A stretch of 64,000 nt of DNA from a virus. The position numbers were made by a program, and so were the translations under genes. How positions within the stretch are numbered: position 1 is the stretch's first letter; each line of letters opens with the position of its first letter. The notes beneath the pieces are model-generated. The model had not been told where the DNA came from, did no database searches, and saw only the letters and a program-made list of their open reading frames with translations. The stretch is from the IMG/VR virus record IMGVR_UViG_3300046170_000478, positions 1-64,000 of that record, one strand, 5' to 3'. Positions 18,655 through 29,572 of this stretch are shown here, in pieces.

Positions 18655-19092
18655 ATGAATAAATTACTCAAAATATCATTTGTTTGCTTGCTTATCAGTC
18701 TTCTCTTTAAATTTGGAGTAGACATGTACCTTGAAAGGGGAGCAGATTATCCAGAAGGCCCGACAGTGGACGGAGAAGAATTGTATGTTGATTCTGCGAC
18801 AAATACATTTTATACAGCCCCAGAAATGGTAGAAAAGAATTTATTTTCTGGAACCTCCGTAAGGCTTCATATTAATGGAGAGACCTCGGTGAAGGCTGGG
18901 ATACACAATGGAAAACTTCATGGTCCCTTTGATAGTTGGTATGAGAATGGGCAAAAGCAAATGTCTCTTATCTGGTATAATGGAGTTAAATTCCGCAACT
19001 TTAGAGCTTACTTGTCAAATGGGGATGAAATTGAGGGGGATGGCAATGAGTTAGGGCGTAAGGTATTCTCTGGAGAAATAGTCCTTCAATAA
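18655..19092 (+). CDS. Membrane-anchored MORN-variant repeat protein
   Basis: N-terminal TM segment; 'GKLHGPFDSWYENGQKQ' MORN_2-like repeat. Confidence 0.6.
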   Translation: MNKLLKISFVCLLISLLFKFGVDMYLERGADYPEGPTVDGEELYVDSATNTFYTAPEMVEKNLFSGTSVRLHINGETSVKAGIHNGKLHGPFDSWYENGQKQMSLIWYNGVKFRNFRAYLSNGDEIEGDGNELGRKVFSGEIVLQ

Positions 19093-19325
19093 TGAATTGT
19101 AGATACGATAGTAGGATAATTGGCCCCAATGGTTATAAGGAATTGATGATAGCAGTCTTGAATGAACAAGATAATCCCATCGATTCCTGTTGCCATAAAT
19201 TAGATTCGCCAGAGATACATGATCTTATGAGTGCAGAAACAGGAGCACATAAGTTTGGAATAAAAGGTTGGGACTTAGATCCAGCAGATCAATATCAGGG
19301 ATATGCGACAAGAGTTGTAAAGTGA
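19092..19325 (+). CDS. Hypothetical protein
   Basis: Coupled ORF. Confidence 0.55.
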   Translation: MNCRYDSRIIGPNGYKELMIAVLNEQDNPIDSCCHKLDSPEIHDLMSAETGAHKFGIKGWDLDPADQYQGYATRVVK

Positions 19326-19480
19326 AAAGATTATGGAGAATATGGGCTAGGACTATGGGCTGTAAAATATCAGATTCTCATATAGAGTCAGATGTTGCGG
19401 CTATTATCAGGACATTTTGGTGGCTATTACATATTACTACCTGTGGTTTTATAATCGCAAATACAATTAGACATTGGTAA
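19322..19480 (+). CDS. Small membrane protein
   Basis: Likely GTG start at 19322 (GTGA overlap); 'WRIWARTMG...AAIIRTFW...FIIANTIRHW'. Confidence 0.55.
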   Translation: MKRLWRIWARTMGCKISDSHIESDVAAIIRTFWWLLHITTCGFIIANTIRHW

Positions 19481-19481
19481 A

Positions 19482-20117
19482 ATGAAGACTAGAAAAAAAT
19501 TTACCCCAATCCCCAAAGACATAGGAGATTATATTTCTTACAGTGAAGAATCAAGCACTGGGCTTGTTTGGAGAGTTAATAGGGGGAGTAACCTTGTAAA
19601 AGGAAAAGAAGCTGGTCGTATTACTGAGAAAGGATATTTTAGATTTAGTTTTAATGGTAAAGAGTATTTCAATACTAGAGTAGTTTACTTCCTATGCACA
19701 GGAATAGACCCAGAAGAAAAGCAGGTTGACCATGAAGATACTAATAGATTAAATAATAAAATTTCAAATCTTAGGCTAGCTACAAATAAGCAGAACCAAG
19801 ATAATAAAAAGAAACAAAAAAATAATACTAGCGGGGTAACTGGGGTTTCTTGGCATAAAAAACATAAGAAGTATCATGCGGTTATCAAACATAATGGCAA
19901 GCCGATTTTGCTTGGTCATTTCAATAAACCTGACAAAGATAAAGCTATAGCAGTCCGTATAGCAGCCGAAACAGATCCTAGATTCAAAGACCAAGAATTC
20001 AGACATTCCCACAACGATGAACACGCTCCTTCCCCAGAGATGTTAGTCTGGGCCAAACAATATCTTGAAGATAGAATAGAGAGACTAAACTGGAAAGAGA
20101 AGTATAATTTACAATAA
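19482..20117 (+). mobile_element. Free-standing HNH-AP2 homing endonuclease gene
   Basis: 'VDHEDTNRLNNKISNLRLAT..QN' (HNH_3-like) followed by 'NNTSGVTGVSWHK...YHAVI...LGHF' (AP2-like). Confidence 0.85.
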
Positions 20118-20132
20118 TTAAAAATTTAATAC

Positions 20133-20327
20133 ATGATGAATAAACTATTAAGCAAACTGTTTAAAAAACAAACCCCAACCATTTCTCATTGGGTCATAAA
20201 CCCTCCTAGCTGGTTGGAGAGACAGGTCCAGAATCAGAAAATAGAAGATGCCTACAGGGATTCACTCAAATCTAACGCCAAGGATCATCATTGGTCTGAT
20301 AAGTATAGTAAGCATTTCAAGACATAA
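20133..20327 (+). CDS. Hypothetical protein
   Basis: Last rightward ORF before the AT-rich gap. Confidence 0.55.
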   Translation: MMNKLLSKLFKKQTPTISHWVINPPSWLERQVQNQKIEDAYRDSLKSNAKDHHWSDKYSKHFKT

Positions 20328-21090
20328 TTTACAACAAAATGTATTTTAATTATTATAAACTATTATTTAATAATAAAATAGAATTTAAAAGATTCAACTA
20401 TAGAGAAATACATATAGCATATATACAAGTACCAATATAGAAAAAATAAGATAAAATAAAGACTTCTATACCTATTCATAACAAATTCAAAGAAATATGG
20501 GATAGTGGCCACCTCTCTAAATAAATAAATACGAATAGGAAGTGAGCCAGCCAACCAAATTCAACCCTAACTCAACCAAATAAAACGTGATTTTTCGTGA
20601 CTTGCGTGAAGAAACGCCAGTTTATCTTGATTTATGCAAATAAACAAGGGCGCGGAGTGTCGCTTTTTTTAGAAAAACCTGAAGGTTAACCAGAATTTTT
20701 TCAAATAAATAGGAATTGGGTAGGGGTAAATATAAAGAATTTATACAGAATTTTAAAAAAACTAAATATATCGCCAGTTTACAGGCAAAACGCTTAATAA
20801 GCAATGAGGCTTATACCAGCAAATAAACACAAATAAATGAGCCGACTAGAGTCATTTATATATTTCATTATTATCTTGGCCGCAATCTATCTTATTTCCT
20901 CAGGTTAATTTTTTAATCTTTTTTATTGACTACCACCTTCGGTGGTAGTAATGTGATGGAGTAATAGAACACATATGAGACACCAATGCACACACAAGAG
21001 ATCTGGATTTTATTTCTGATTATATTGACAGTTATACTAACCATCCTGAATTGAAGCTCAGGTTGTAGGTTAGAGCCTTAATAAACAAAT

Positions 21091-21122
21091 AAGCGAGGAA
21101 CGTTAATCCCTCGCTTTTTTTT
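21091..21122 (+). terminator. Rho-independent terminator (possibly bidirectional)
   Basis: AAGCGAGG...CCTCGCTT followed by a T run. Confidence 0.75.
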
Positions 21123-21151
21123 GGTTTTATCTTTTTATTCGGAAATCGCTG

Positions 21152-21226
21152 TAACTCACTGATACTCAAGGAGTTAGGAGGCTCCGCCCGCCCCCGCCCG
21201 CTAACACGCTGATATTCAACGAGTTA
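21152..21226. repeat. 75-bp double-palindrome element 1
   Basis: TAACTCACTGA-TAC-TCAAGGAGTTA / 25-bp GC spacer / TAACACGCTGA-TAT-TCAACGAGTTA. Confidence 0.9.
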
Positions 21227-21235
21227 CGGGGGTTT

Positions 21236-21412
21236 TTATTTAATGTATTCTTTTACAGACAGACAGTTAAACTCCATTGCCCTTTGATCGGTAGGATCTC
21301 CAGCCTCTCCAACCTCAACCAAGTCGATAGCCTCAGTCTCCGAATATGCTTCAACTTCAAACTGCAAGCGGTTCACCTCCTCTATTATAACCAAGTAGTT
21401 TTTAATCTTCAT
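21236..21412 (-). CDS. DpnD/PcfM-like small protein
   Basis: 'YLVIIEE...FEVEAYSETEAIDLV'; start at MKIKNY. Confidence 0.5.
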   Translation of the reverse strand: MKIKNYLVIIEEVNRLQFEVEAYSETEAIDLVEVGEAGDPTDQRAMEFNCLSVKEYIK

Positions 21413-21692
21413 CTGGCAATGGCTCCTTTCCATAGTCGAGGTAATGCATATGTTGCTTGGCATACTGGTAAACCTTAGTCATTGCTTTCTTAACCTCTTC
21501 TCTTTCTTGATAAGCTTTATCCCAAGCCTCATCCCCAAGAGGGTAGTAATCCCTTTGATGGAAGTTCGTATCATAAAGGAGTTTAATCTGCGCTTGGCTT
21601 ACAGCGTCAAACAATTCGTTGTATTGTCTGCGTAGGCTAGTCTCTCCTGATCCATTCATGTGGATCAAGGGCATTGTATGTTTTTCAATCAT
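21402..21692 (-). CDS. Hypothetical protein
   Basis: 'PLIHMNGSG...FHQRDYYP'. Confidence 0.65.
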   Translation of the reverse strand: MIEKHTMPLIHMNGSGETSLRRQYNELFDAVSQAQIKLLYDTNFHQRDYYPLGDEAWDKAYQEREEVKKAMTKVYQYAKQHMHYLDYGKEPLPDED

Positions 21693-21693
21693 A

Positions 21694-21876
21694 TTAAATT
21701 CTTTCTTTTACTTGTTCAATTACCAAGACAAAGCCTAGCTCTTTAAGAGCTTCAATGTCATAGTGAGTTAAAGTTTTTCTTCCTGTTAGTTTCTTTATAG
21801 AATTCCTTACAGATTCTTTTTTTACATAAGTTAGGGTATTGCCGTAAACTTCTTTTCTTTCTACTTCTATTGTCAT
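21694..21876 (-). CDS. Hypothetical protein
   Basis: 'VYGNTLTY...LTGRKTLT...LKELGF'. Confidence 0.65.
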   Translation of the reverse strand: MTIEVERKEVYGNTLTYVKKESVRNSIKKLTGRKTLTHYDIEALKELGFVLVIEQVKERI

Positions 21877-21878
21877 AT

Positions 21879-22121
21879 CTATTTTCTGTAGTTAGGATGC
21901 CAAGTTGGGAATTCTACTTTTGGGGTCAATTCTGTATACCCTAGCTCTGTGAAATGTTCATGCAGAGTAATCGCTCCATGCAGACATATCTGAAACCAAT
22001 GCTTTTTATTATCGTCTGTGAATTCAAAGTAGCAATCTGCTCTATCACTTTCGCACTTAGTTACTCTAAATGTTTTAGGGAATACTCCTGTCAATTTAAC
22101 TGTTGGTGTTTCGTTGTTCAT
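21879..22121 (-). CDS. Hypothetical protein
   Basis: Likely start at MNNETPTV. Confidence 0.5.
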   Translation of the reverse strand: MNNETPTVKLTGVFPKTFRVTKCESDRADCYFEFTDDNKKHWFQICLHGAITLHEHFTELGYTELTPKVEFPTWHPNYRK

Positions 22122-22362
22122 CTTTTGCTTGTTGTATTTTTTTCTTTCTGTCGTTTCTGTCATGGAACCATGCAGAGCCATATCTAATGTTTCTTGATTT
22201 AAAGAAATCGTCACAAGCTTCGCTCACTGTGCGAGCAATGTTTGCGGGGAGTACATCGTACATCCCAAAGTTTCCTTGCGAGGATTGTTTTATTATCTCC
22301 TTGTTTTCAACTGCTTTGTGGAGTAAGTCGTCTTTAAGAACGTGGTAATCTCTTGATTTCAT
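22096..22362 (-). CDS. Hypothetical protein
   Basis: ORF in the leftward operon. Confidence 0.55.
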   Translation of the reverse strand: MKSRDYHVLKDDLLHKAVENKEIIKQSSQGNFGMYDVLPANIARTVSEACDDFFKSRNIRYGSAWFHDRNDRKKKIQQAKDEQRNTNS

Positions 22363-22436
22363 TTTATTTTTATAAAGTGATTAAAGTAAAAAAGATGGTG
22401 ATTAAAATTAACGCGATTAGTACTATCTCTTGCATT

Positions 22437-23159
22437 TTACGGCTCCACAACAAAACCCGTTTCGTCTTTTTTAGCAAGACCTTTCTCAACCAATCCAACG
22501 ATCACACCTTTAGGATCTTTAAAGCGCAGATCACTTTCATCTCCATCTATCACTTTATAGCCTAAGTGAGTTTTAGGAAGTGAACCACGGAAGACGACGG
22601 CGACGTTCCCACCTAACTCAAGGATTGTTTTCATTTTATATTCACTTGTTGCTTCACTGCGAGAAAAGGTGAGGTGATAGTTGTCGGGCATTTTGCCATC
22701 AAGCCAAGCTCTCATCCTGTAAAACCCTTTGGTGTAATCGTAGAAACTCACATTTGGGAACTCTTCCATGACGTTTAAACTGCAGATTGGAGGCTTTGTT
22801 GTTCTACCCTTGCGGATGTTCTCCCAAGGGATATCACTTGTAAGATTAAGTCGGAAGCATGGAATCATTTGCTTTTTAGCTGCGCTAATGATCGCCTTGC
22901 CGATTTCAATCCTTAAGTCTGACATGAAACCGAAGTTATCCTTAAAGAATCTTTTAGTTTTATTGATTCTAGAAGTTTGCACGTTGCTCATGCAACCACG
23001 ACCCGCAGTATCTAAACAAGCGGCACGACAACCTGCGCTTGCCCATTGGCAGACATTGAATCCTGATTTATTAGCGGGGGAAAGATGGAGACCGAAAGTG
23101 CGATATCCTAGAACCTCTCCCTTTAGTGTTTTGGCATTGCCTTGATTTAGTAATTTCAT
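22437..23159 (-). CDS. GP88-like protein (Cys-rich, radical-SAM-like)
   Basis: 'NVCQWASAGCRAACLDTAGRG', 'FRLNLTSDIPWE', 'FYDYTK', 'NYHLTFSRSE', 'DGDESDLRF.DP'. Confidence 0.75.
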   Translation of the reverse strand: MKLLNQGNAKTLKGEVLGYRTFGLHLSPANKSGFNVCQWASAGCRAACLDTAGRGCMSNVQTSRINKTKRFFKDNFGFMSDLRIEIGKAIISAAKKQMIPCFRLNLTSDIPWENIRKGRTTKPPICSLNVMEEFPNVSFYDYTKGFYRMRAWLDGKMPDNYHLTFSRSEATSEYKMKTILELGGNVAVVFRGSLPKTHLGYKVIDGDESDLRFKDPKGVIVGLVEKGLAKKDETGFVVEP

Positions 23160-23254
23160 AGCGGAGATATTTTGACAGGTTTGGGTTTGGGTGCAAGTGT
23201 ATTTTAAATGTTTTTTTATTATTTTTTAATGCTTGACAGAGGACGTAATCCTTG

Positions 23255-23329
23255 TAACTTGTTGATTGATAACGAGTTAGGCGGCTCCGCCCGCCCCCGC
23301 CCGCTAACTCATTGATATTCAACGACTTA
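23255..23329. repeat. 75-bp double-palindrome element 2
   Basis: TAACTTGTTGA-TTG-ATAACGAGTTA / GGCGGCTCCGCCCGCCCCCGCCCGC / TAACTCATTGA-TAT-TCAACGACTTA. Confidence 0.9.
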
Positions 23330-23354
23330 GAACGTTTATTTTTTTATTATTGAC

Positions 23355-23391
23355 AAAAGAAAACCCCGCCCCCCATGCAGAGGGGACGGGG
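23355..23391 (-). terminator. Rho-independent terminator after the DUF932 gene
   Basis: CCCCGCCCC...GGGGACGGGG hairpin with an A-run on the + strand; near-duplicate at 25257-25290. Confidence 0.65.
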
Positions 23392-23413
23392 CTTGCTATG
23401 TCTACCCAGAAAT

Positions 23414-24208
23414 TTATGCAGGGAGCACTAGGGCTGACTCCTTATCCTCTTGCGATATAACCGCAGGAGTAAAATCGGCAGACCTGTCAAAGACAGATTG
23501 CATCCGCATTGTGCGGTTGGATATATCATGCGATCCGATACCCTTTAAAGATTCTGTAACGGCATTATAGAGGGTCCAAAGAGAACCTCCTTTGAACTCC
23601 TCATGACGAGGATTGTGGAATTCCTGAAGGGCGTCTACCGCTCTTTTATTGCCGAAAACTTTGTCATTGAAAAGGTCCAAAACAAGTTTGGAAGCATCTT
23701 TGACTTCCGTGTTTTTATACTTCTCTATCCGATCTTCCATGGCAGTCCAGTGAGAAGTCACTTGAGAAATGGCGGAGGTGATCCGATTGTAAAGATCATT
23801 CATAATGTAAGTCGTGTGCTTACGCGCTAGGGTGACATCGCTAGAAAAGCAGAGGTTATCACAAACCAACATTTGGTTGCCGACTGCGATTCCTGCAGCT
23901 AGGGATTTGTCGTGAGAATTCCGAAGACCAAGGACAAGCTGGCGATCTTTAGAGTTGCACTCTCGCTGGATCACGCCATGAGCCATAAATGGTTGACCTG
24001 TGAGAGCGAATCCCCCGAAGTAACGTTGTGAACCGTGGGAAAGGCCATGTTCTTCATTGATGATTTCAAGGCCAGCGTCACCGATGGCTTTTCTGGTCAT
24101 ATCAACCAACTCGTGGTGAGCGATTGGAGTGTGGCTTTTGGTTGGCTTTGGAGTCTCAACTTTAGAAAGGACTTCAGAGCTGACTTTGTTTTTTGCGTAG
24201 ATAAGCAT
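23414..24208 (-). CDS. DUF932-family protein
   Basis: 'LGLRNSHDKS...GNQMLVCDNLCF...ARKHT', 'SLWTLYNAVTE'. Confidence 0.75.
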   Translation of the reverse strand: MLIYAKNKVSSEVLSKVETPKPTKSHTPIAHHELVDMTRKAIGDAGLEIINEEHGLSHGSQRYFGGFALTGQPFMAHGVIQRECNSKDRQLVLGLRNSHDKSLAAGIAVGNQMLVCDNLCFSSDVTLARKHTTYIMNDLYNRITSAISQVTSHWTAMEDRIEKYKNTEVKDASKLVLDLFNDKVFGNKRAVDALQEFHNPRHEEFKGGSLWTLYNAVTESLKGIGSHDISNRTMRMQSVFDRSADFTPAVISQEDKESALVLPA

Positions 24209-24449
24209 AATGGTAGTTTGGTTAAAACGAGAGATTGTCTCTCGACAGGGGAATTATGACAGAAAATAATTTAGAAACAAGCCCTTTTTAATACTTTTTT
24301 AATCTTTTTTTTTGGGCTAAGAATGCCAAATATTCTTGCAAATAAACTTGACACAGGTTGCTTAGGTTAGAGACAAATATGCCAAATATATATATTGACT
24401 TATAAAGCGTAATCTGATGATTTTTGAGTTTAAAGCTAAAAAAACCGTC

Positions 24450-24524
24450 TAACTCACTGATACACAACGAGTTAGGCGGCGCGGCGGGGGCTTCAGCCCT
24501 AACTCCTTTATAACCAAGGAGTTA
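24450..24524. repeat. 75-bp double-palindrome element 3
   Basis: TAACTCACTGA-TAC-ACAACGAGTTA / GGCGGCGCGGCGGGGGCTTCAGCCC / TAACTCCTTTA-TAA-CCAAGGAGTTA. Confidence 0.9.
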
Positions 24525-24740
24525 GATGTCAATGTGTTCTGCAATTTTTTTGTGGCCTCGCCAAGCACTCCAGCCCTCCACGGATATGCCCGAGCAGTAA
24601 TCTGCCTTGGCATCCCCCTCGGAGAGATTTTCCCAAGCGATCTGTGAGGCTTTTTCGGAAGCGGATTTGGGAGAGCGCGACATGGCGACTCCTGTGTAAA
24701 CTCCTGTGCTTGCGACTATGTAGTAACTGAATTTGTACAT
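24522..24740 (-). CDS. Hypothetical protein (leaderless; stop codon inside element 3)
   Basis: TTGCCA-17-TACTCT-6-ATG (MYKFSYY...). The TAA stop is the terminal triplet of the palindrome. Confidence 0.65.
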   Translation of the reverse strand: MYKFSYYIVASTGVYTGVAMSRSPKSASEKASQIAWENLSEGDAKADYCSGISVEGWSAWRGHKKIAEHIDI

Positions 24741-24786
24741 GGGGGGAGAGTAACAGAAGAATTTATTTTTGGCAATATATTTATAC

Positions 24787-24810
24787 AAAAAAAAGCTCCC
24801 TTTCGGGAGC
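24787..24810 (-). terminator. Rho-independent terminator
   Basis: GCTCCC-GAAA-GGGAGC-T8 on the minus strand. Confidence 0.8.
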
Positions 24811-24828
24811 CTTGAAAAGCGATTTAGA

Positions 24829-25008
24829 TCACTTAGTGTTTTCAGGAGTGGGGTCAGGCGTGGAGGCTTCCGCGATACGGGCGAGCCGTTCATCCTCTGC
24901 TTGCCACTCGCGATAATCCTCCTCGGAGAGTTGCTCGCGTACCTTGCGGTATCCGTCATATTGTGCTTGGAGGGCTTCCCAGTCGGTGGTGGTATGTATA
25001 TTAAACAT
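24829..25008 (-). CDS. Hypothetical protein (leaderless)
   Basis: TTGCCA-16-TACCCT-6-ATG (MFNIHTTTDW...). Confidence 0.6.
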   Translation of the reverse strand: MFNIHTTTDWEALQAQYDGYRKVREQLSEEDYREWQAEDERLARIAEASTPDPTPENTK

Positions 25009-25070
25009 GGCCGAAGGGTACAAAAACTGTAGGGTATGGCAAGCTTTTTTTTATTTATTTTTTTAAGCTG

Positions 25071-25145
25071 TAAGTCTTTGATTGATAGTGAGTTAGGCGG
25101 CGCGGCGGGGGCTTCGGCCCTAAGTCCCTGCTAATCAATGAGTTA
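25071..25145. repeat. 75-bp double-palindrome element 4
   Basis: TAAGTCTTTGA-TTG-ATAGTGAGTTA / GGCGGCGCGGCGGGGGCTTCGGCCC / TAAGTCCCTGC-TAA-TCAATGAGTTA. Confidence 0.9.
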
Positions 25146-25253
25146 CAGGCCGTTATCAAAAATTCTGCCTAACTTTTTTATAAACCCACTTGTATAAGCA
25201 GCTATAAAAACTAATGCAAGCACAAAAATGTAAGTTATTCGTTTTTTATTCAT
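25143..25253 (-). CDS. Putative 36-aa membrane peptide (stop codon inside element 4)
   Basis: MNKKRITYIFVLALVFIAAYTSGFIKKLGRIFDNGL. It lies just downstream of a terminator, so expression is uncertain. Confidence 0.4.
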   Translation of the reverse strand: MNKKRITYIFVLALVFIAAYTSGFIKKLGRIFDNGL

Positions 25254-25256
25254 AGT

Positions 25257-25290
25257 AAAAGAGAACCCGCCCCCCACCACAGGGGACGGG
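25257..25290 (-). terminator. Rho-independent terminator
   Basis: CCCGCCCCC...GGGGACGGG hairpin, related to 23355-23391. Confidence 0.6.
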
Positions 25291-25308
25291 CTATACACAC
25301 AACACCGA

Positions 25309-25608
25309 TTAAAAAAGAGTTTTGAGCATTTGGACTGCGGTGGCGAAGCGGCCTCTCACCTTGGTGATACCTGCAACGTGGAGGGTTCGGAACTTTCGCT
25401 CCCCTGCGTCATCAAGGTCGCGGGTAGCAGCGACGACATAACGCTTGCCATTCAATTCGGCGAATCCATCGGTCTGGATTTCTTCCACAAGGAAGCTTCT
25501 GATACCGTCAGCCTTGATGGTGCTTTGCCCAGCATTGGCGTAGGTGATCACGCGCTTGTTGAGCTTAGATTCAAGGGCGGCGGGTGATAGTGTATATAGG
25601 TTTCTCAT
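25309..25608 (-). CDS. Hypothetical protein (leaderless; possible SH3/WYL-like beta-barrel)
   Basis: TTGACC-17-TAAAAT-7-ATG (MRNLYTL...). 'ITY...R...RD.D..KFRTLHVAGI' is reminiscent of WYL-like folds (weak). Confidence 0.6.
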   Translation of the reverse strand: MRNLYTLSPAALESKLNKRVITYANAGQSTIKADGIRSFLVEEIQTDGFAELNGKRYVVAATRDLDDAGERKFRTLHVAGITKVRGRFATAVQMLKTLF

Positions 25609-25618
25609 CAGAGGTATT

Positions 25619-25753
25619 TTAGTCAAAAAGGTAATCAAGGTCAATGCTATTTTGTAAATCTTTTTCAAGATCTTTTGAGTGGTCGAGCATCTCCAAGTTG
25701 CCAGCGATGACAAGCGTGAAGATAACTCCTGCGATAGTGAGTATAGAGTTCAT
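25619..25753 (-). CDS. Putative 44-aa membrane peptide
   Basis: MNSILTIAGVIFTLVIAGNLEMLDH...; begins 1 nt after the upstream stop. Confidence 0.45.
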   Translation of the reverse strand: MNSILTIAGVIFTLVIAGNLEMLDHSKDLEKDLQNSIDLDYLFD

Positions 25754-25754
25754 A

Positions 25755-25913
25755 TTACTTAGAGGCTTTTAGGATTTGTTTTTTCTTTTCAGCAATTAAC
25801 TTTTTTGCATGGAGGGTGCAAAGACCGTGGGACTTGATTTTTTTCAGACCTTCTTCCATGCCCTCTAGTTCTGCTTTATACATTCTTACTGTCCAGCTGT
25901 TGGTGTCGCTCAT
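25755..25913 (-). CDS. Small basic protein (52 aa, leaderless); not in the ORF track
   Basis: TTTTAA-17-TAAAAT-6-ATG; MSDTNSWTVRMYKAELEG...KQILKASK. Confidence 0.6.
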   Translation of the reverse strand: MSDTNSWTVRMYKAELEGMEEGLKKIKSHGLCTLHAKKLIAEKKKQILKASK

Positions 25914-26030
25914 GGGGATATTTTACTCTAATCGGCAGAGAATTAAAAGCTTTTTCTGCATATATTTAATCTTTTTTTTATTTAAAAAGGCTTGACATAG
26001 GCGAGCTATAGAGTAGGGCGAAAAGCCTCG

Positions 26031-26105
26031 TAAGTCGTTGATACTCAATGAGTTAGAGTTCGGGGCGGGGCGCTCCGCGCTAAGTCGTTGTCGCTCAGTG
26101 AGTTA
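26031..26105. repeat. 75-bp double-palindrome element 5
   Basis: TAAGTCGTTGA-TAC-TCAATGAGTTA / GAGTTCGGGGCGGGGCGCTCCGCGC / TAAGTCGTTGT-CGC-TCAGTGAGTTA. Confidence 0.9.
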
Positions 26106-26184
26106 GAGCGTTTTTTATTTAAATGTTTTTATTTACTTTTTTTACCCTAAAAGGCTTGACACTCTCACTGTTCTGATTTAAAAT

Positions 26185-26280
26185 GGTGGCATATTTCTGC
26201 GAGGGCTATGCCAGACCCACGATCACTCCTTATTTAACGTCTTACGGATCGCTTAACCGTGTTTATACTCACTTGACGAA
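26185..26280. ncRNA. Candidate structured non-coding RNA
   Basis: ORF-free. Stems TGGCATA/TATGCCA, CGTC/GACG and ACGG/CCGT, and a potential GCGATC/GATCGT pseudoknot. A + strand TTGACA-17-TAAAAT promoter is at 26156-26184. Confidence 0.3.
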
Positions 26281-26283
26281 AGT

Positions 26284-26541
26284 TTATTGATCTAGGTTTT
26301 GCGCTAAGAGCGCGGCGAGACCCTGAGGCTCCTCCTTCTTCTCTTGTCTTAGTCCTATGGAGATTTCAAACTCATGAAGAGCGTATTCTAGATCTTCAGC
26401 TATATTTTTGCGTTGTTCAAAGTTTTTAGCTTTAGAGCGGGTTTTAAGATGTGATATCTTCCAAGCTAGACATTCTCTTAACCAATTTAAAGATTTGATT
26501 TGTTTAAATGTCCCTGATAAGTCTATTTTATCTTCGTTCAT
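26284..26541 (-). CDS. Hypothetical protein
   Basis: ORF in the leftward island. Confidence 0.6.
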   Translation of the reverse strand: MNEDKIDLSGTFKQIKSLNWLRECLAWKISHLKTRSKAKNFEQRKNIAEDLEYALHEFEISIGLRQEKKEEPQGLAALLAQNLDQ

Positions 26542-26552
26542 ATTATTTTTAT

Positions 26553-26777
26553 TTACTTGCCGTAGATCCAGCGAAGCTCATCACTCCACTCCTTGACCAT
26601 CTCAGCCTCGGCCCCTTGTGGATTCTTGCAAGCTGCACCAATCCACTTTCTGATGAGGCGCTGAAGCTTTTTCATCCTGCGCCATTCCATCCAATGCACA
26701 CCAATGGCGAAAGGGTAAGTGAGAATGAGAATGGCTTTGCCCTTGGCGTCTTGGTCTTTGAAGTTGTGTAGGTTCAT
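26553..26777 (-). CDS. Hypothetical membrane protein
   Basis: Hydrophobic segment AILILTYPFAIGVHW. Confidence 0.55.
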   Translation of the reverse strand: MNLHNFKDQDAKGKAILILTYPFAIGVHWMEWRRMKKLQRLIRKWIGAACKNPQGAEAEMVKEWSDELRWIYGK

Positions 26778-26797
26778 AGTGTTAGGGTGTTTGGGTT

Positions 26798-26995
26798 TTA
26801 CTTGCGAGCATTACGCATATCGCGCAATGCTTTTGCTGCTTGCTCTCTGCTAATGGTGATTGTGCTGAATGTGGCAGGTGCGACACGGTAGATTAAAGCT
26901 ACTCTCTCAGTATCATAGACTCTGATGGCGAGGTTTTGGTTGTCGTACATGGTGCAGTCTTTTTCTCTTTGAATGTTGATGTGTGTCGCAGTCAT
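26798..26995 (-). CDS. Hypothetical protein (leaderless)
   Basis: TTTACA-18-TAGAAT-6-ATG. Confidence 0.65.
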   Translation of the reverse strand: MTATHINIQREKDCTMYDNQNLAIRVYDTERVALIYRVAPATFSTITISREQAAKALRDMRNARK

Positions 26996-27034
26996 GGGAG
27001 TATTCTAGTATAAAGTCGGGGCTAGTGTAAAGAT

Positions 27035-27199
27035 TTATTTTGATTTTTTAAAGACTACTTTGCCAGTCTCCATAGTAGCTTTCCAGTCGATAGGGTTGGC
27101 TTCGCGCTGCTTTTCGCGCTTCATTGCATCCTTGGCAAGTGAATCGCGAGCATCCAAAACTCTTTCGTGGTAAGTGCGGCCTGTGTTGTTTGCTGTCAT
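27035..27199 (-). CDS. Small protein (54 aa, leaderless); not in the ORF track
   Basis: TTGTTT-17-TATACT-6-ATG; MTANNTGRTYHERVLDARD...GKVVFKKSK. Confidence 0.65.
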   Translation of the reverse strand: MTANNTGRTYHERVLDARDSLAKDAMKREKQREANPIDWKATMETGKVVFKKSK

Positions 27200-27247
27200 G
27201 TGGGTAGTATACATTAAAAATTGATTTTAAACAAGCTTTTTCTGCTA

Positions 27248-27658
27248 TTATTTTGAATTTATTTCAGGGTATTCTATAACCTCGTCATCATAGATTTTAC
27301 CGTTCAGGTCTGGGTCTGACTGTATAGCGCCAGTGTATTCCTTGCCCTCATAGGTGAAAGCTACTAAGTGAGTAGCCCAGCAACCGTCTTGCTCGACTAC
27401 TTCCCCAAACTCTATGGAGTCCTTGACTTCGCCATAGGTGAACGCTCTCTCTTTGATGTCGGTGATCTCATCGGCGTGGTTTTCCTTTGGGTCAACTGCA
27501 CAAGCTGCGATGATACCCTCATAGCATTTACCTTTATATATAAACTCGCAATGCCAAGTGAACTCCTCAGACATATGGCCAGTTTCAATTTGTTCAGCGA
27601 TAACATCAAAAGTAAGATCTTGGACTGACTTTGTGGTGATTGAGGTAATCTCTTTCAT
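27248..27658 (-). CDS. Acidic hypothetical protein with an internal duplication (leaderless)
   Basis: TTTTAA-17-TATAAT-6-ATG; two similar halves (FIYKGKCYEGII / FTYEGKEYTGAI). Confidence 0.7.
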   Translation of the reverse strand: MKEITSITTKSVQDLTFDVIAEQIETGHMSEEFTWHCEFIYKGKCYEGIIAACAVDPKENHADEITDIKERAFTYGEVKDSIEFGEVVEQDGCWATHLVAFTYEGKEYTGAIQSDPDLNGKIYDDEVIEYPEINSK

Positions 27659-27832
27659 GGGGGAATTATATACTGAGATAAGATTTTTTAAAAGCTTTTT
27701 CTGTATAAAAATTCATTTTTTTTAGCTGCAGAGGGGGGAGGGTTTTTTGAGAATTTTGAACTTTTAACTTGACTGGATTTCGGCGGGGGGGTGGTGTATT
27801 CTATAAACAAGTGGCCAATTGAGAGTTAATGC

Positions 27833-27838
27833 GTGTAA
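27833..27838 (+). promoter_or_regulatory. GTGTAA late-promoter-like motif (representative copy)
   Basis: Also at 8054, 33462, 35426, 41720, 41730, 43096, 46051 and 63019, each at or near a gene boundary upstream of a late-type gene. Confidence 0.6.
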
Positions 27839-27850
27839 CAAATAACACAA

Positions 27851-28531
27851 ATGACGTTTGGAAATAAAAACTCATTATTGTTGGGTCATATAGAATTGAC
27901 AGAGAAACAAAGTAAATTCCATAAGATAATGCGTAACCCTGAAACAAGGGTTGTATTTATTAGTGGGCCAGCGGGGACTGCGAAGACATTTTTGTCTGTA
28001 TATACGGCGTTATATAAATACAATGAGGATAATCTGCTTAATATATTATATTTGAGGAGTTTGGCTGAGAGTGCGGATAAGGGGATGGGTTTTCTGAAAG
28101 GAAGCATGGATGAGAAGTTCAATCCGTATTTGGGTCCGTTAGAAGATAAATTGGATGAATTATTAAATGGGCCAGAAAAAAAACAAATACAAGACAGGAA
28201 AGTGTTGGAAGCGGCCCCGATTAACTTTTTGAGAGGTGCTACATGGAAAAACAAGATGGTTATAGTGGATGAGGCACAAAATATGACAACAAGAGAACTT
28301 ACAACTATCATCACCCGCATTTCAACTAACACTACGTTATTCTTATGCGGAGATACGATGCAAAGTGATATTAGGTCTTCTGGTTTTAATAAGTTTTGTA
28401 ATATATTTGATGATGACGAAAGCAAGTCGTTTGGGATACATCATTTAGAATTTAGTAAGGAAGACGTTATGAGAGACAAAATCATAAGTTATTTAGTAGA
28501 TAAAATTGAAAAAAGCGAAATAAAACAATAA
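27851..28531 (+). CDS. phoH: PhoH-like ATPase
   Basis: 'GPAGTAKT', 'GFLKGS', 'FLRGAT', 'VDEAQN', 'LCGDTMQSD'. Confidence 0.92.
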   Translation: MTFGNKNSLLLGHIELTEKQSKFHKIMRNPETRVVFISGPAGTAKTFLSVYTALYKYNEDNLLNILYLRSLAESADKGMGFLKGSMDEKFNPYLGPLEDKLDELLNGPEKKQIQDRKVLEAAPINFLRGATWKNKMVIVDEAQNMTTRELTTIITRISTNTTLFLCGDTMQSDIRSSGFNKFCNIFDDDESKSFGIHHLEFSKEDVMRDKIISYLVDKIEKSEIKQ

Positions 28532-28539
28532 AATTAGCC

Positions 28540-28905
28540 ATGAATAAGATTTTCTGTGTATCCTGTGGTTTCAAGATCTTATATGAGGTCGCTAAGCCCA
28601 AATTCTGCTCTAGCTGTGGGAATAGCTTAGGTTCTATTTCTTCTGCAGCCCAAAAAGAAGAAGAGGAAGAGGTTTCTGATCTTGATATTGATTTGAGTAA
28701 GCTAAAAAGAGATATTGTTGTCGAGAACGACAAGCGAAAAACAAAAATTGAGGATATTTGGGGTTCTGTCACTTCTTCGGAGGCAAATGGCCCTCAGGAA
28801 AATTTTTCCCGTCCTGAATCGAGAGATCCTGACGGGCAAGAGCTTTTGGATAAGACTATTAGAGATTGTTCGTCCTCACGTATGAGGGATATAGATGGAG
28901 AATGA
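28540..28905 (+). CDS. Zinc-ribbon protein
   Basis: 'FCVSCG...KPKFCSSCG'. Confidence 0.75.
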   Translation: MNKIFCVSCGFKILYEVAKPKFCSSCGNSLGSISSAAQKEEEEEVSDLDIDLSKLKRDIVVENDKRKTKIEDIWGSVTSSEANGPQENFSRPESRDPDGQELLDKTIRDCSSSRMRDIDGE

Positions 28906-29572
28906 TTTTGAAAGTCAACGCCCTGATTTAGAAGACCTTTTAAAAAAATATAGACCGAAGTGGCAACTAACCGCCATAGCGTGGATGGATTACGATGATG
29001 TATGTCAAATAATCCGATTACATATTTTTAATAAGTGGCACCTTTGGGATCAGAAGCGACCCTTTAAGCCTTGGGCTTCCATGATTATCTCTAATCAGAT
29101 TAAAAACTTGATTAGGAATAATTATTCAAGTTTCGCCAAGCCTTGTTTAAGATGTCCTCATAATATGGGGTCAGATAGTTGTGCATTAACTAAAAGCAAG
29201 GAGCAAGATATCAGTTGCGCTGATTTCGCTAAGTGGAAGAATAAAAAAGAAAAAGCCTACAATATTAAACTTCCACTAGCTTTAGAGGAAGGTTCATTCA
29301 CAGGGACTACTACATTAAAGGATCATGTTGATTATACAGATTCGTCTAAGCGCCTTCATGAATTAGTTATGAAGGAATTGAATGATAAGCATAAAAAGAT
29401 ATATTATCTCCTATATATTGAAAATGAGGATGAAAATGAAATAGCGAAGCAGTTTGGTTTTAAAGCTGATTCAGTGAAAAGAAAAAAACCCAGATATAAA
29501 CAAATGGCAAATTTAAAAAAGAAATTTTATCAAATTGCGGTTAGAATTATGAAGGACAACGATATTTTATGA
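28895..29572 (+). CDS. Phage RNA polymerase sigma factor-like protein
   Basis: Region-2-like 'DYDDVCQ..RLHIF.KW..WD..RPFKPWA..IISNQIKNLIR' and region-4-like 'L...HKKIYYLLYIE...NEIAKQFG'. Confidence 0.7.
   Translation: MENDFESQRPDLEDLLKKYRPKWQLTAIAWMDYDDVCQIIRLHIFNKWHLWDQKRPFKPWASMIISNQIKNLIRNNYSSFAKPCLRCPHNMGSDSCALTKSKEQDISCADFAKWKNKKEKAYNIKLPLALEEGSFTGTTTLKDHVDYTDSSKRLHELVMKELNDKHKKIYYLLYIENEDENEIAKQFGFKADSVKRKKPRYKQMANLKKKFYQIAVRIMKDNDIL

Follow-up and report, generated by a model that had tools for sequence, protein, structure and literature searches.

Within a single island, the early region of a virus genome deposited as IMG/VR record IMGVR_UViG_3300046170_000478 carries five copies of a 75-bp element composed of two 25-bp imperfect palindromes placed around a 25-bp core rich in G and C. 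The most plausible explanation, to which we would assign a probability of about one half, is that these elements are paired operator or architectural sites for a dimeric protein or for the host integration host factor (IHF), embedded in terminator/promoter cassettes similar to the promoter-early stem-loop (PeSL) cassettes of T4-type phages. This proposal is founded on the anatomy of the elements, their fixed geometry, conservation of their sequence without conserved pairing, the register of an IHF-type core, the distance to a promoter-like hexamer, confinement to one island and exchange of gene blocks, all of which were observed. The analysed stretch, called below the window, comprises bases 1-64000 of the 94,027-base record, which is estimated to be 70% complete.

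A repeat search of the region 21000-26400 returned one repeat family, with 75-nt copies starting at 21152, 23255, 24450, 25071 and 26031. A degenerate pattern describing the 25-nt half-site recovered ten palindromes and one chance match (about one was expected), and none of 100 shuffled sequences reached 11 matches. When the paired pattern was run over the whole record, as had been proposed earlier, it matched at these five places only, while its reversed control gave no match. Thus, the ten paired palindromes described previously from inspection of the letters (referred to here as the sequence-only reading) were recovered by independent searches. In all five pairs the palindromes lie 50 nt apart, start to start. 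The similarity between spacers indicated by that reading was also confirmed, as cores 1 and 2 are identical at 24 of 25 positions, and so are cores 3 and 4; on the plus strand the core is C-rich in elements 1-2 and G-rich in elements 3-5. The elements are located as follows.

21152-21226: element 1, palindromes 21152-21176 and 21202-21226, C-rich core 21177-21201; it lies 9 nt beyond the stop codon of the minus-strand open reading frame (ORF) 21236-21463.
23255-23329: element 2, with the DUF932 gene and its terminator on one side and the GP88-family gene on the other.
24450-24524: element 3, whose last triplet is the stop codon of an ORF that ends at 24522 on the minus strand; a T run comes after the left palindrome of the element on that strand, and this palindrome was flagged as terminator-like in a terminator scan.
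25071-25145: element 4, whose last triplet contains the stop of a small ORF on the minus strand (25143-25253); 28 nt away in the minus direction are the UP-like A/T run and the -35 hexamer of the next leaderless promoter.
26031-26105: element 5, the 'last' element, whose right palindrome and flanks are 93-99% identical in relatives; its right flank (26106-26116, plus strand) consists of a 5-mer followed by a T6 run.

A pattern scan of viral contigs gave 37 loci, from which a scoring script retained 26 contigs and the window, the other loci being chance matches. In total, 93 elements were found in these 26 related contigs and the window, and the palindromes start 50 nt apart in 90 of them. The spacing was previously claimed never to vary; this holds for the window and for nearly all copies in the relatives, but three of the 93 have 49 nt. 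The modules number 4-7 per genome and are situated at joints of gene blocks; in three other large records 7, 4 and 3 copies are present, each set inside one island of 4.5-7.6 kb.

Alignment of 68 distinct copies (136 palindromes) in register revealed that the letters which never or hardly ever vary make up a dyad. Each half reads TAA, S, TC, R-Y and TGA, the second half mirroring the first, and three letters form the centre. Outside each palindrome there are an A5 tract and a G/C-rich 5-mer, read inward, which on the plus strand appear as an A run on the left and a T run on the right; the unit is thus larger than the 75 bp recognized in the sequence-only reading. About 20-24 of the 25 core nucleotides are G or C, the first and last core letters are complementary in 52 of the 68 copies, and the core is otherwise only loosely symmetric. 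Between orthologous elements the core differs strongly while the palindromes are unchanged, though the flanking genes are 85-89% identical. It appears, therefore, that the length and composition of the core are selected, and that its sequence is not. As a separate observation, a third palindrome is present 44-53 nt from the pair in L009 (6569), L022 (11410), L034 (3691), L041 (5073), L012 (775) and L037 (5376); hence, in some relatives the site can occur in triplets.

The same scan extended to prokaryotes, with one genome per species (185,579 species), produced 71 pattern matches, all of them chance occurrences or unrelated hairpins, and no real element; therefore, it provided no clue to the host. 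A survey of related contigs and candidate hosts, suggested at the outset, was thereby fruitful for the former and negative for the latter. The source is, judging by its genes, a large uncultured tailed phage. The record encodes a tape-measure protein, a sigma factor beside phoH, ribonucleotide reductase, ThyX, DnaB and a primase, its terminase shares only about 24% identity with those of Bacillus phages, and no cultured relatives were found at the DNA level.

The conserved entity is a double-stranded sequence and not a hairpin, because the variable positions show no compensatory pairing. For both a two-hairpin and a one-long-hairpin model, the percentage of paired cells and the covariation score calculated over the 68 rows were below those of all 500 column shuffles, and positions 4:22, 7:19 and 8:18 pair no more often than in the shuffles. 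RNAalifold gave no consensus structure for the element, and a search of 19000-29000 against Rfam at E values up to 1 gave no match to it. The strongest dependencies were found between adjacent letters, namely GT or AC at positions 7-8 and GTA or TAC at the centre, which are the same base-pair steps read off either strand, and the variable palindrome positions fit a degenerate dyad, with S at position 4 and R-Y at 7-8. Such dependencies are consistent with the half-sites being read independently in duplex DNA. Between the two palindromes, complementary pairs occur less often than by chance. The outer arms on the left and on the right show correlated differences at six positions, the flank 5-mer included, and most elements have two end types; either each end is inherited as a unit together with its flank, or there is avoidance of perfect long inverted repeats. 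With respect to the flank 5-mers, which could lengthen the hairpins or close the long stem, weak signals were obtained at two pairs, and no consistent pairing.

The sequence-only reading had pointed to a resemblance of several half-sites to the IHF consensus, and this could be both corroborated and extended. The full WATCAR-N4-TTR core occurs in one register, at palindrome position 13 on either strand, in 105 of 136 palindromes (77%), and the centre triplet is biased toward supplying the W-A of WATCAR. In the window, 8 of the 10 palindromes have this core; matches number 23 per 64 kb, and 8 of them fall inside the 375 bases of the elements.

Transcription signals accompany the elements in a regular manner. 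The island genes (21236-27658) lie on the minus strand. In the sense of these genes, an element comes after a stop codon (elements 1, 3 and 4) or a terminator (element 2), and ahead of the A+T-rich run and the -35 hexamer of the next promoter. Promoters of the leaderless type were recognized for minus-strand starts at 24743, 25009, 25913, 26995 and 27658; in each, a -35 hexamer and a TA...T hexamer are separated by 16-18 nt, and six letters rich in C lead to the ATG. Since the C-rich stretch and then ATG follow directly after the TA...T hexamer, the mRNAs would be leaderless. Together with the canonical hairpins listed below, these promoters substantiate the earlier view that the blocks possess their own promoters and, often, terminators.

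22437-23159, minus strand: gene of the GP88 family (PF17338), in the block that elements 1 and 2 delimit.
23414-24208, minus strand: DUF932 gene, a single-gene block bracketed by two elements.
23361-23394, minus strand: canonical terminator (G/C hairpin) belonging to the DUF932 gene; in the sense of this gene, element 2 comes right after it.
24792-24813: canonical G/C hairpin terminator.
25264-25292, minus strand: canonical G/C hairpin terminator that follows the Sm-like gene, within the block preceding element 4.
23233-23238, plus strand: -35-like hexamer after an A/T-rich run, 16 nt before element 2.
25992-26030, plus strand: inward promoter-like flank of element 5, with a -35-like hexamer (25992-25997), a 16-nt spacer, a TA-led hexamer (26014-26019), an A run and a 5-mer (26026-26030).

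Hairpins of the same type are located beside elements in L029 and L031, and the terminator at 23361-23394 represents the stem-loop part of a PeSL-like cassette. A second promoter-like arrangement faces the elements themselves. On 34 distinct flanks an A+T run leads into a TTGACA-like hexamer that points inward and has its end exactly 33 nt from the element; this hexamer is followed by 16 nt, a TA-led hexamer and then the A tract, and some relatives have it at both sides. The centre of this hexamer and the two palindrome centres are each about 50 bp apart. In the window, the hexamer at 33 nt is present at element 5, and a variant at 16 nt at element 2; the latter recurs at the orthologous elements of L018, L045, L029, L034 and L041. 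No promoter-like flank accompanies 40 of the 68 elements.

Binding sites for a protein that organizes the DNA were one of two alternatives put forward in the sequence-only reading, and we favour this one because the geometry is nearly invariant over 93 copies, the letters of the degenerate dyad are conserved, pairing is not kept and shows no covariation, and the IHF core, where present, occupies a single register. One could thus envisage each element as a double-stranded docking module with two 25-bp dyad sites whose centres are 50 bp apart, separated by a core which would need to be rich in G and C and would tolerate almost any sequence, with an A5 tract outside each site. Such modules would be placed where early transcription units meet, as parts of PeSL-like composite cassettes that combine a terminator, an A+T-rich run and a -35 hexamer. 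A dimer or a dimer of dimers, either an unrecognized early protein of the phage or host IHF, might occupy both sites and bend or bridge the DNA, thereby insulating nearby early promoters or shutting them off, so that the module would act as an operator, a roadblock or an architectural element. As dispersed repeats of 75-165 bp, the modules could also provide patches of homology, at which a RecA-type system of the phage would occasionally add, delete or move blocks. We infer protein binding, the identity of the binder and its effect on transcription from the features described above.

Several observations weigh against this proposal. IHF cannot be assumed to be present in the host; the palindromes are conserved also at positions which the IHF consensus does not need, and the IHF core has no fixed orientation. 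The A5 tract, if compared with that of IHF sites, is about 18 nt from a core on the top strand and on the wrong side of a core on the bottom strand. The correlated end types are not predicted by a simple homodimer-site model, and the TA-led hexamer of the inward flanks lacks the final T found in all credible promoters of this phage. No protein binding the elements was identified: the HU/IHF, HTH_3 and ParB families gave no match in the 94-kb record (about 70% complete), and Pfam and PHROGs searches with about 25 proteins of the island and its neighbourhood revealed no DNA-binding family, the small island proteins having no match whatsoever in either database. Two of the island proteins were modelled. 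The most widely conserved of all (25312-25608, minus strand), with 13 homologues and no sequence family, gave a model with a mean predicted local distance difference test (pLDDT) score of 83.6, which resembles an Sm/WYL-like barrel with flanking helices, the structural similarity being middling (Foldseek E about 0.05, VIA Z 5-6). This predicted fold belongs to a nucleic-acid-binding class, which by itself does not indicate binding to the element. For the 60-aa protein encoded at 21697-21876, the modelled fold has no structural match.

A rather improbable alternative would be that the elements act at the level of RNA, as a structured transcript of about 95 nt that extends from the A run to the opposite T run and is transcribed off the promoter-like flanks. 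It could serve as a small RNA, an attenuator or antitermination leader, an RNase III-type processing site or a bidirectional terminator, and the Sm-like island protein might act on it. The -35-like hexamer with its A+T run at a fixed 33 nt, the T run past the element and the model of the conserved 25312-25608 protein would agree with such a function, yet the -10-like hexamer without its final T and the elements devoid of promoter-like flanks speak against it. Single copies are predicted to fold stably (about -51 kcal/mol at the lowest); nevertheless, neither fold is selected for pairing, as indicated by the comparison with the shuffles, the lack of an RNAalifold consensus and the absence of an Rfam match. 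In the 'last' element, G:U exceeds A:C by 24 to 1 on the strand that a flanking promoter would transcribe, though in 8 orthologues only, and outside these orthologous elements the bias is absent. Moreover, in element 5, 26092-26096 could pair with 26106-26110 across a 9-nt loop, giving 5 G/C-rich pairs directly before the T6 run; by our own reading this may be a terminator-like hairpin of the plus strand, specific to the 'last' copy, although the terminator scan does not flag it. Only element 3 was flagged, on the gene strand. In general, the stems do not have the features of an intrinsic bidirectional terminator, as they are A+U-rich, contain 2-3 mismatches and end 5 nt from the T run, and strong canonical terminators are already present beside several elements.

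Three further candidates were considered and rejected: N4-type hairpin promoters or cruciforms, as the pairing is not maintained; a single-strand promoter of the Frpo type known from plasmids, as there is no complementarity between the 16-nt spacers of the two promoter-like flanks; and a mini-CRISPR (clustered regularly interspaced short palindromic repeats) array of the repeat-spacer-repeat form, as the left and right repeats differ while the spacers share composition and G runs.

The other alternative of the sequence-only reading, i.e. recombination sites of a gene-cassette array, requires consideration of how blocks differ among relatives. For this purpose, the ORFs from 27 loci were grouped into clusters and placed on maps, and blastn was used to compare the window with every locus. 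The ORF calls in relatives are crude (cluster 'c7' is an antisense artefact), and strand assignments rest mainly on terminator orientation. ORFs which cross elements in L011, L015, L025, L029, L031 and L033 (cluster 'c6') were found to group only through their translated palindromes; these ORFs are artefacts and would mislead automatic annotation.

Overall, the blocks follow a conserved order: GP88 comes first, then DUF932, then variable blocks and the one with the Sm-like gene, and finally the 'last' element. Several orthologous elements have unchanged gene neighbours throughout the clade. Two elements enclose the DUF932 gene also in the distant L023 and in L025, L029, L031, L034 and L041, and in L037 with an extra small ORF. 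The prediction that gene content would vary between elements, with breakpoints at them, was supported in part. Where the window has element 2 alone, L029 has an element, a three-gene block and another element, and homology resumes 4-18 nt from the element ends; in L034 a c13-c10 block is joined to the DUF932 block at an element; and one alignment with L041 ends exactly at the right end of element 4. On the other hand, in the close relatives L018 and L045, which miss element 5, the breakpoints (25621 and 26176) lie outside any element, and enrichment among 1016 ends of alignments of at least 250 nt is weak, since 6.6% of them are within 20 nt of an element as compared with 5.0% of all positions. 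The 20-nt zones just outside the elements hold 6.4% of the ends and 1.7% of the positions, which is no more than intergenic DNA in general. Clean presence or absence of a bare element between close relatives was not seen in the blastn comparison of the window with the loci.

That the elements are dedicated recombination sites is, in the light of these data, unlikely. According to this hypothesis, two IHF-type bending sites would surround a crossover core, as in the attP intasome, the variable core being an 'address' of homology, and the actor would be a recombinase or nuclease not yet recognized, for example the HNH endonuclease encoded near element 1:

19482-20117, plus strand: gene of an HNH_3 endonuclease in which a weak AP2-like stretch is present; it lies about 1 kb to the left of element 1.

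This gene adjoins the first element in four contigs (the window, L018, L029 and L037). AP2 domains of homing endonucleases are said to prefer G/C tracts, which may be regarded as a lead only. The hypothesis gains from the attP-like arrangement of two IHF-consensus sites around a central core, from the block joints at elements in L029 and L034, and from the cores themselves: identity of at least 22 of 25 letters in direct orientation was found in 7 of 45 neighbouring pairs (e.g. 1 and 2, 3 and 4) as compared with 1 of 67 non-neighbours, despite palindromes that differ more. However, the remaining 38 neighbouring pairs share no core, orthologous elements keep their gene neighbours, homology ends are only mildly concentrated near elements, and the blocks are not promoterless cassettes. 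Neither a tyrosine recombinase (PF00589), a serine recombinase nor a Y1 transposase (PF01797) gave a match in the 94-kb record, although with about 70% of the genome available absence is not proven. The earlier remark that no recombinase is visible thus holds, for tyrosine and serine types, over the whole record, but apart from the HNH endonuclease gene a RecA-family recombinase (record positions 74806-75474) is encoded outside the window. With a PD-(D/E)XK nuclease (79093-79791), also outside the window, it represents a phage-encoded kit for homologous recombination. Occasional homologous exchange between the dispersed repeats would explain the block differences. An integron-like system would not, and it is unsupported because sequence and not fold is conserved, the length is fixed, the blocks contain promoters and terminators, and no recombinase of the kind was found; of the cassette hypothesis, therefore, whole-block differences joined at elements are what stands.

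It is tempting to combine the two functions, though we consider this far from probable. The elements would then exemplify a widespread and so far undescribed class of phage 'boundary modules' with two sites for a bending protein 50 bp apart, in which the free G+C core is the address for homology-guided exchange of blocks, so that one module would both insulate early units and steer modular evolution, possibly with the neighbouring G/C-tract-binding HNH endonuclease. Finally, a selfish miniature mobile element (such as a miniature inverted-repeat transposable element, a repetitive extragenic palindrome (REP) or a REPIN-like element) spread through intergenic DNA and functionless for the phage is very hard to credit, for in spite of the inverted-repeat ends, both orientations, many intergenic copies and close likeness of some copies within a genome, the copies are restricted to one island in every large record and keep orthologous positions across divergent phages, no bare presence or absence was seen, no Y1-type transposase was found in the record and no real copy in the 185,579 prokaryote genomes, and the core is not conserved, as it should be in a recently spread element.

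A few observations concern the genes and intergenic regions near the elements. No function has been reported for DUF932 in the literature. The DUF932 gene is preceded on the minus strand by two copies of a 10-nt motif (24324-24333 and 24380-24389; 0.23 expected by chance), and a related repeated motif precedes the DUF932 gene and other genes in L025 and L031; it looks like a separate class of promoter or regulator for this gene. The region to the right of element 5 (26106-26300) is 93-99% identical in relatives, which is above the values for the neighbouring genes, and contains on the plus strand a near-consensus sigma70 promoter (26156-26184) directed opposite to the early genes, with about 100 conserved bases and no evident ORF downstream. 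It may be a non-coding RNA or a control region, and it has no Rfam match. Farther to the right, a phage sigma factor with regions 2 and 4 is encoded on the plus strand at 28895-29572, after phoH and a zinc-ribbon protein, in an order conserved in relatives.

Early regions of large uncultured phages are rich in small genes of host takeover and anti-defence, and their regulation and exchange are poorly understood. A rigid cis-module present throughout a clade at the joints of blocks offers a handle for pull-down of its binder, for mapping of early units and for delimiting the blocks that can be exchanged; if the binder were host IHF, the module would also indicate the host group.

We found no description in the literature of a 75-bp paired-palindrome module with a hypervariable G+C core, and the known systems resemble it in parts. 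The attC sites of integrons conserve fold and not sequence, measure 57 to 141 bp, need IntI and separate promoterless cassettes. Like them, the elements are imperfect inverted repeats between small genes of the same strand, and the upstream stop codons lie inside elements 3 and 4; unlike them, they are conserved in sequence, fixed in length at 75 (74) bp and unselected for pairing, no integrase was found, and the blocks have promoters and terminators. From REP, bacterial interspersed mosaic elements (BIMEs) and REPINs they differ in that no RAYT (Y1) transposase was found in the record, nor any real copy in the collection of prokaryote genomes. In λ attP, the bending sites H2 and H' flank the core, and the A tract of IHF sites is about 8 nt from their core. 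With IHF sites, attP, BIME-1 and RIP elements, the module shares WATCAR-N4-TTR in 77% of its palindromes, an outer A tract and two sites that flank a centre, whereas IHF sites and attP differ from it since here the sites are palindromic, conserved beyond the consensus and without fixed orientation, the A tract is about 18 nt away, and no integrase was found.

Control regions of phages with multiple sites, such as the p4/p6 sites between A2c, A2b and A3 of phi29, OR and OL of λ, and the dispersed C1 operators of P1, are bound co-operatively by proteins that bend the DNA and switch off early transcription. The paired dyad-symmetric sites at a fixed helical spacing beside early promoters are reminiscent of these, although sites of 25 bp are longer than usual, the G+C-rich 25-bp core is mandatory, and there are 4-7 repeats per genome.

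The nearest described system is that of the PeSL cassettes, whose parts, repeated in plastic early regions, are a terminator in the form of a G/C stem-loop, an A+T run and an early promoter of the sigma70 type (Arbiol et al. 2010, PMC2839356; Comeau et al. 2014, PMC4122927). PeSLs flank small genes of no assigned function and were described as crossover points that operate without a dedicated recombinase, homologous recombination of the phage being invoked (PMC2839356; PMC4122927). They have no counterpart of the 75-bp unit with its paired palindromes, 50-bp spacing and hypervariable G+C core; in our elements, furthermore, the promoter-like hexamer points into the unit, often from both sides, pairing is not conserved and breakpoints are only weakly concentrated. 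The 75-bp element itself forms no stem-loop of the PeSL kind, but hairpins that do qualify (23361-23394 and 25264-25292) adjoin elements 2 and 4. As with PeSLs, no site-specific recombinase was found here either, while the phage has its own recombination system, and the island likewise combines G/C terminators, an A+T run, a sigma70-type -35 hexamer and small genes, with some blocks of the relatives joined at the motifs.

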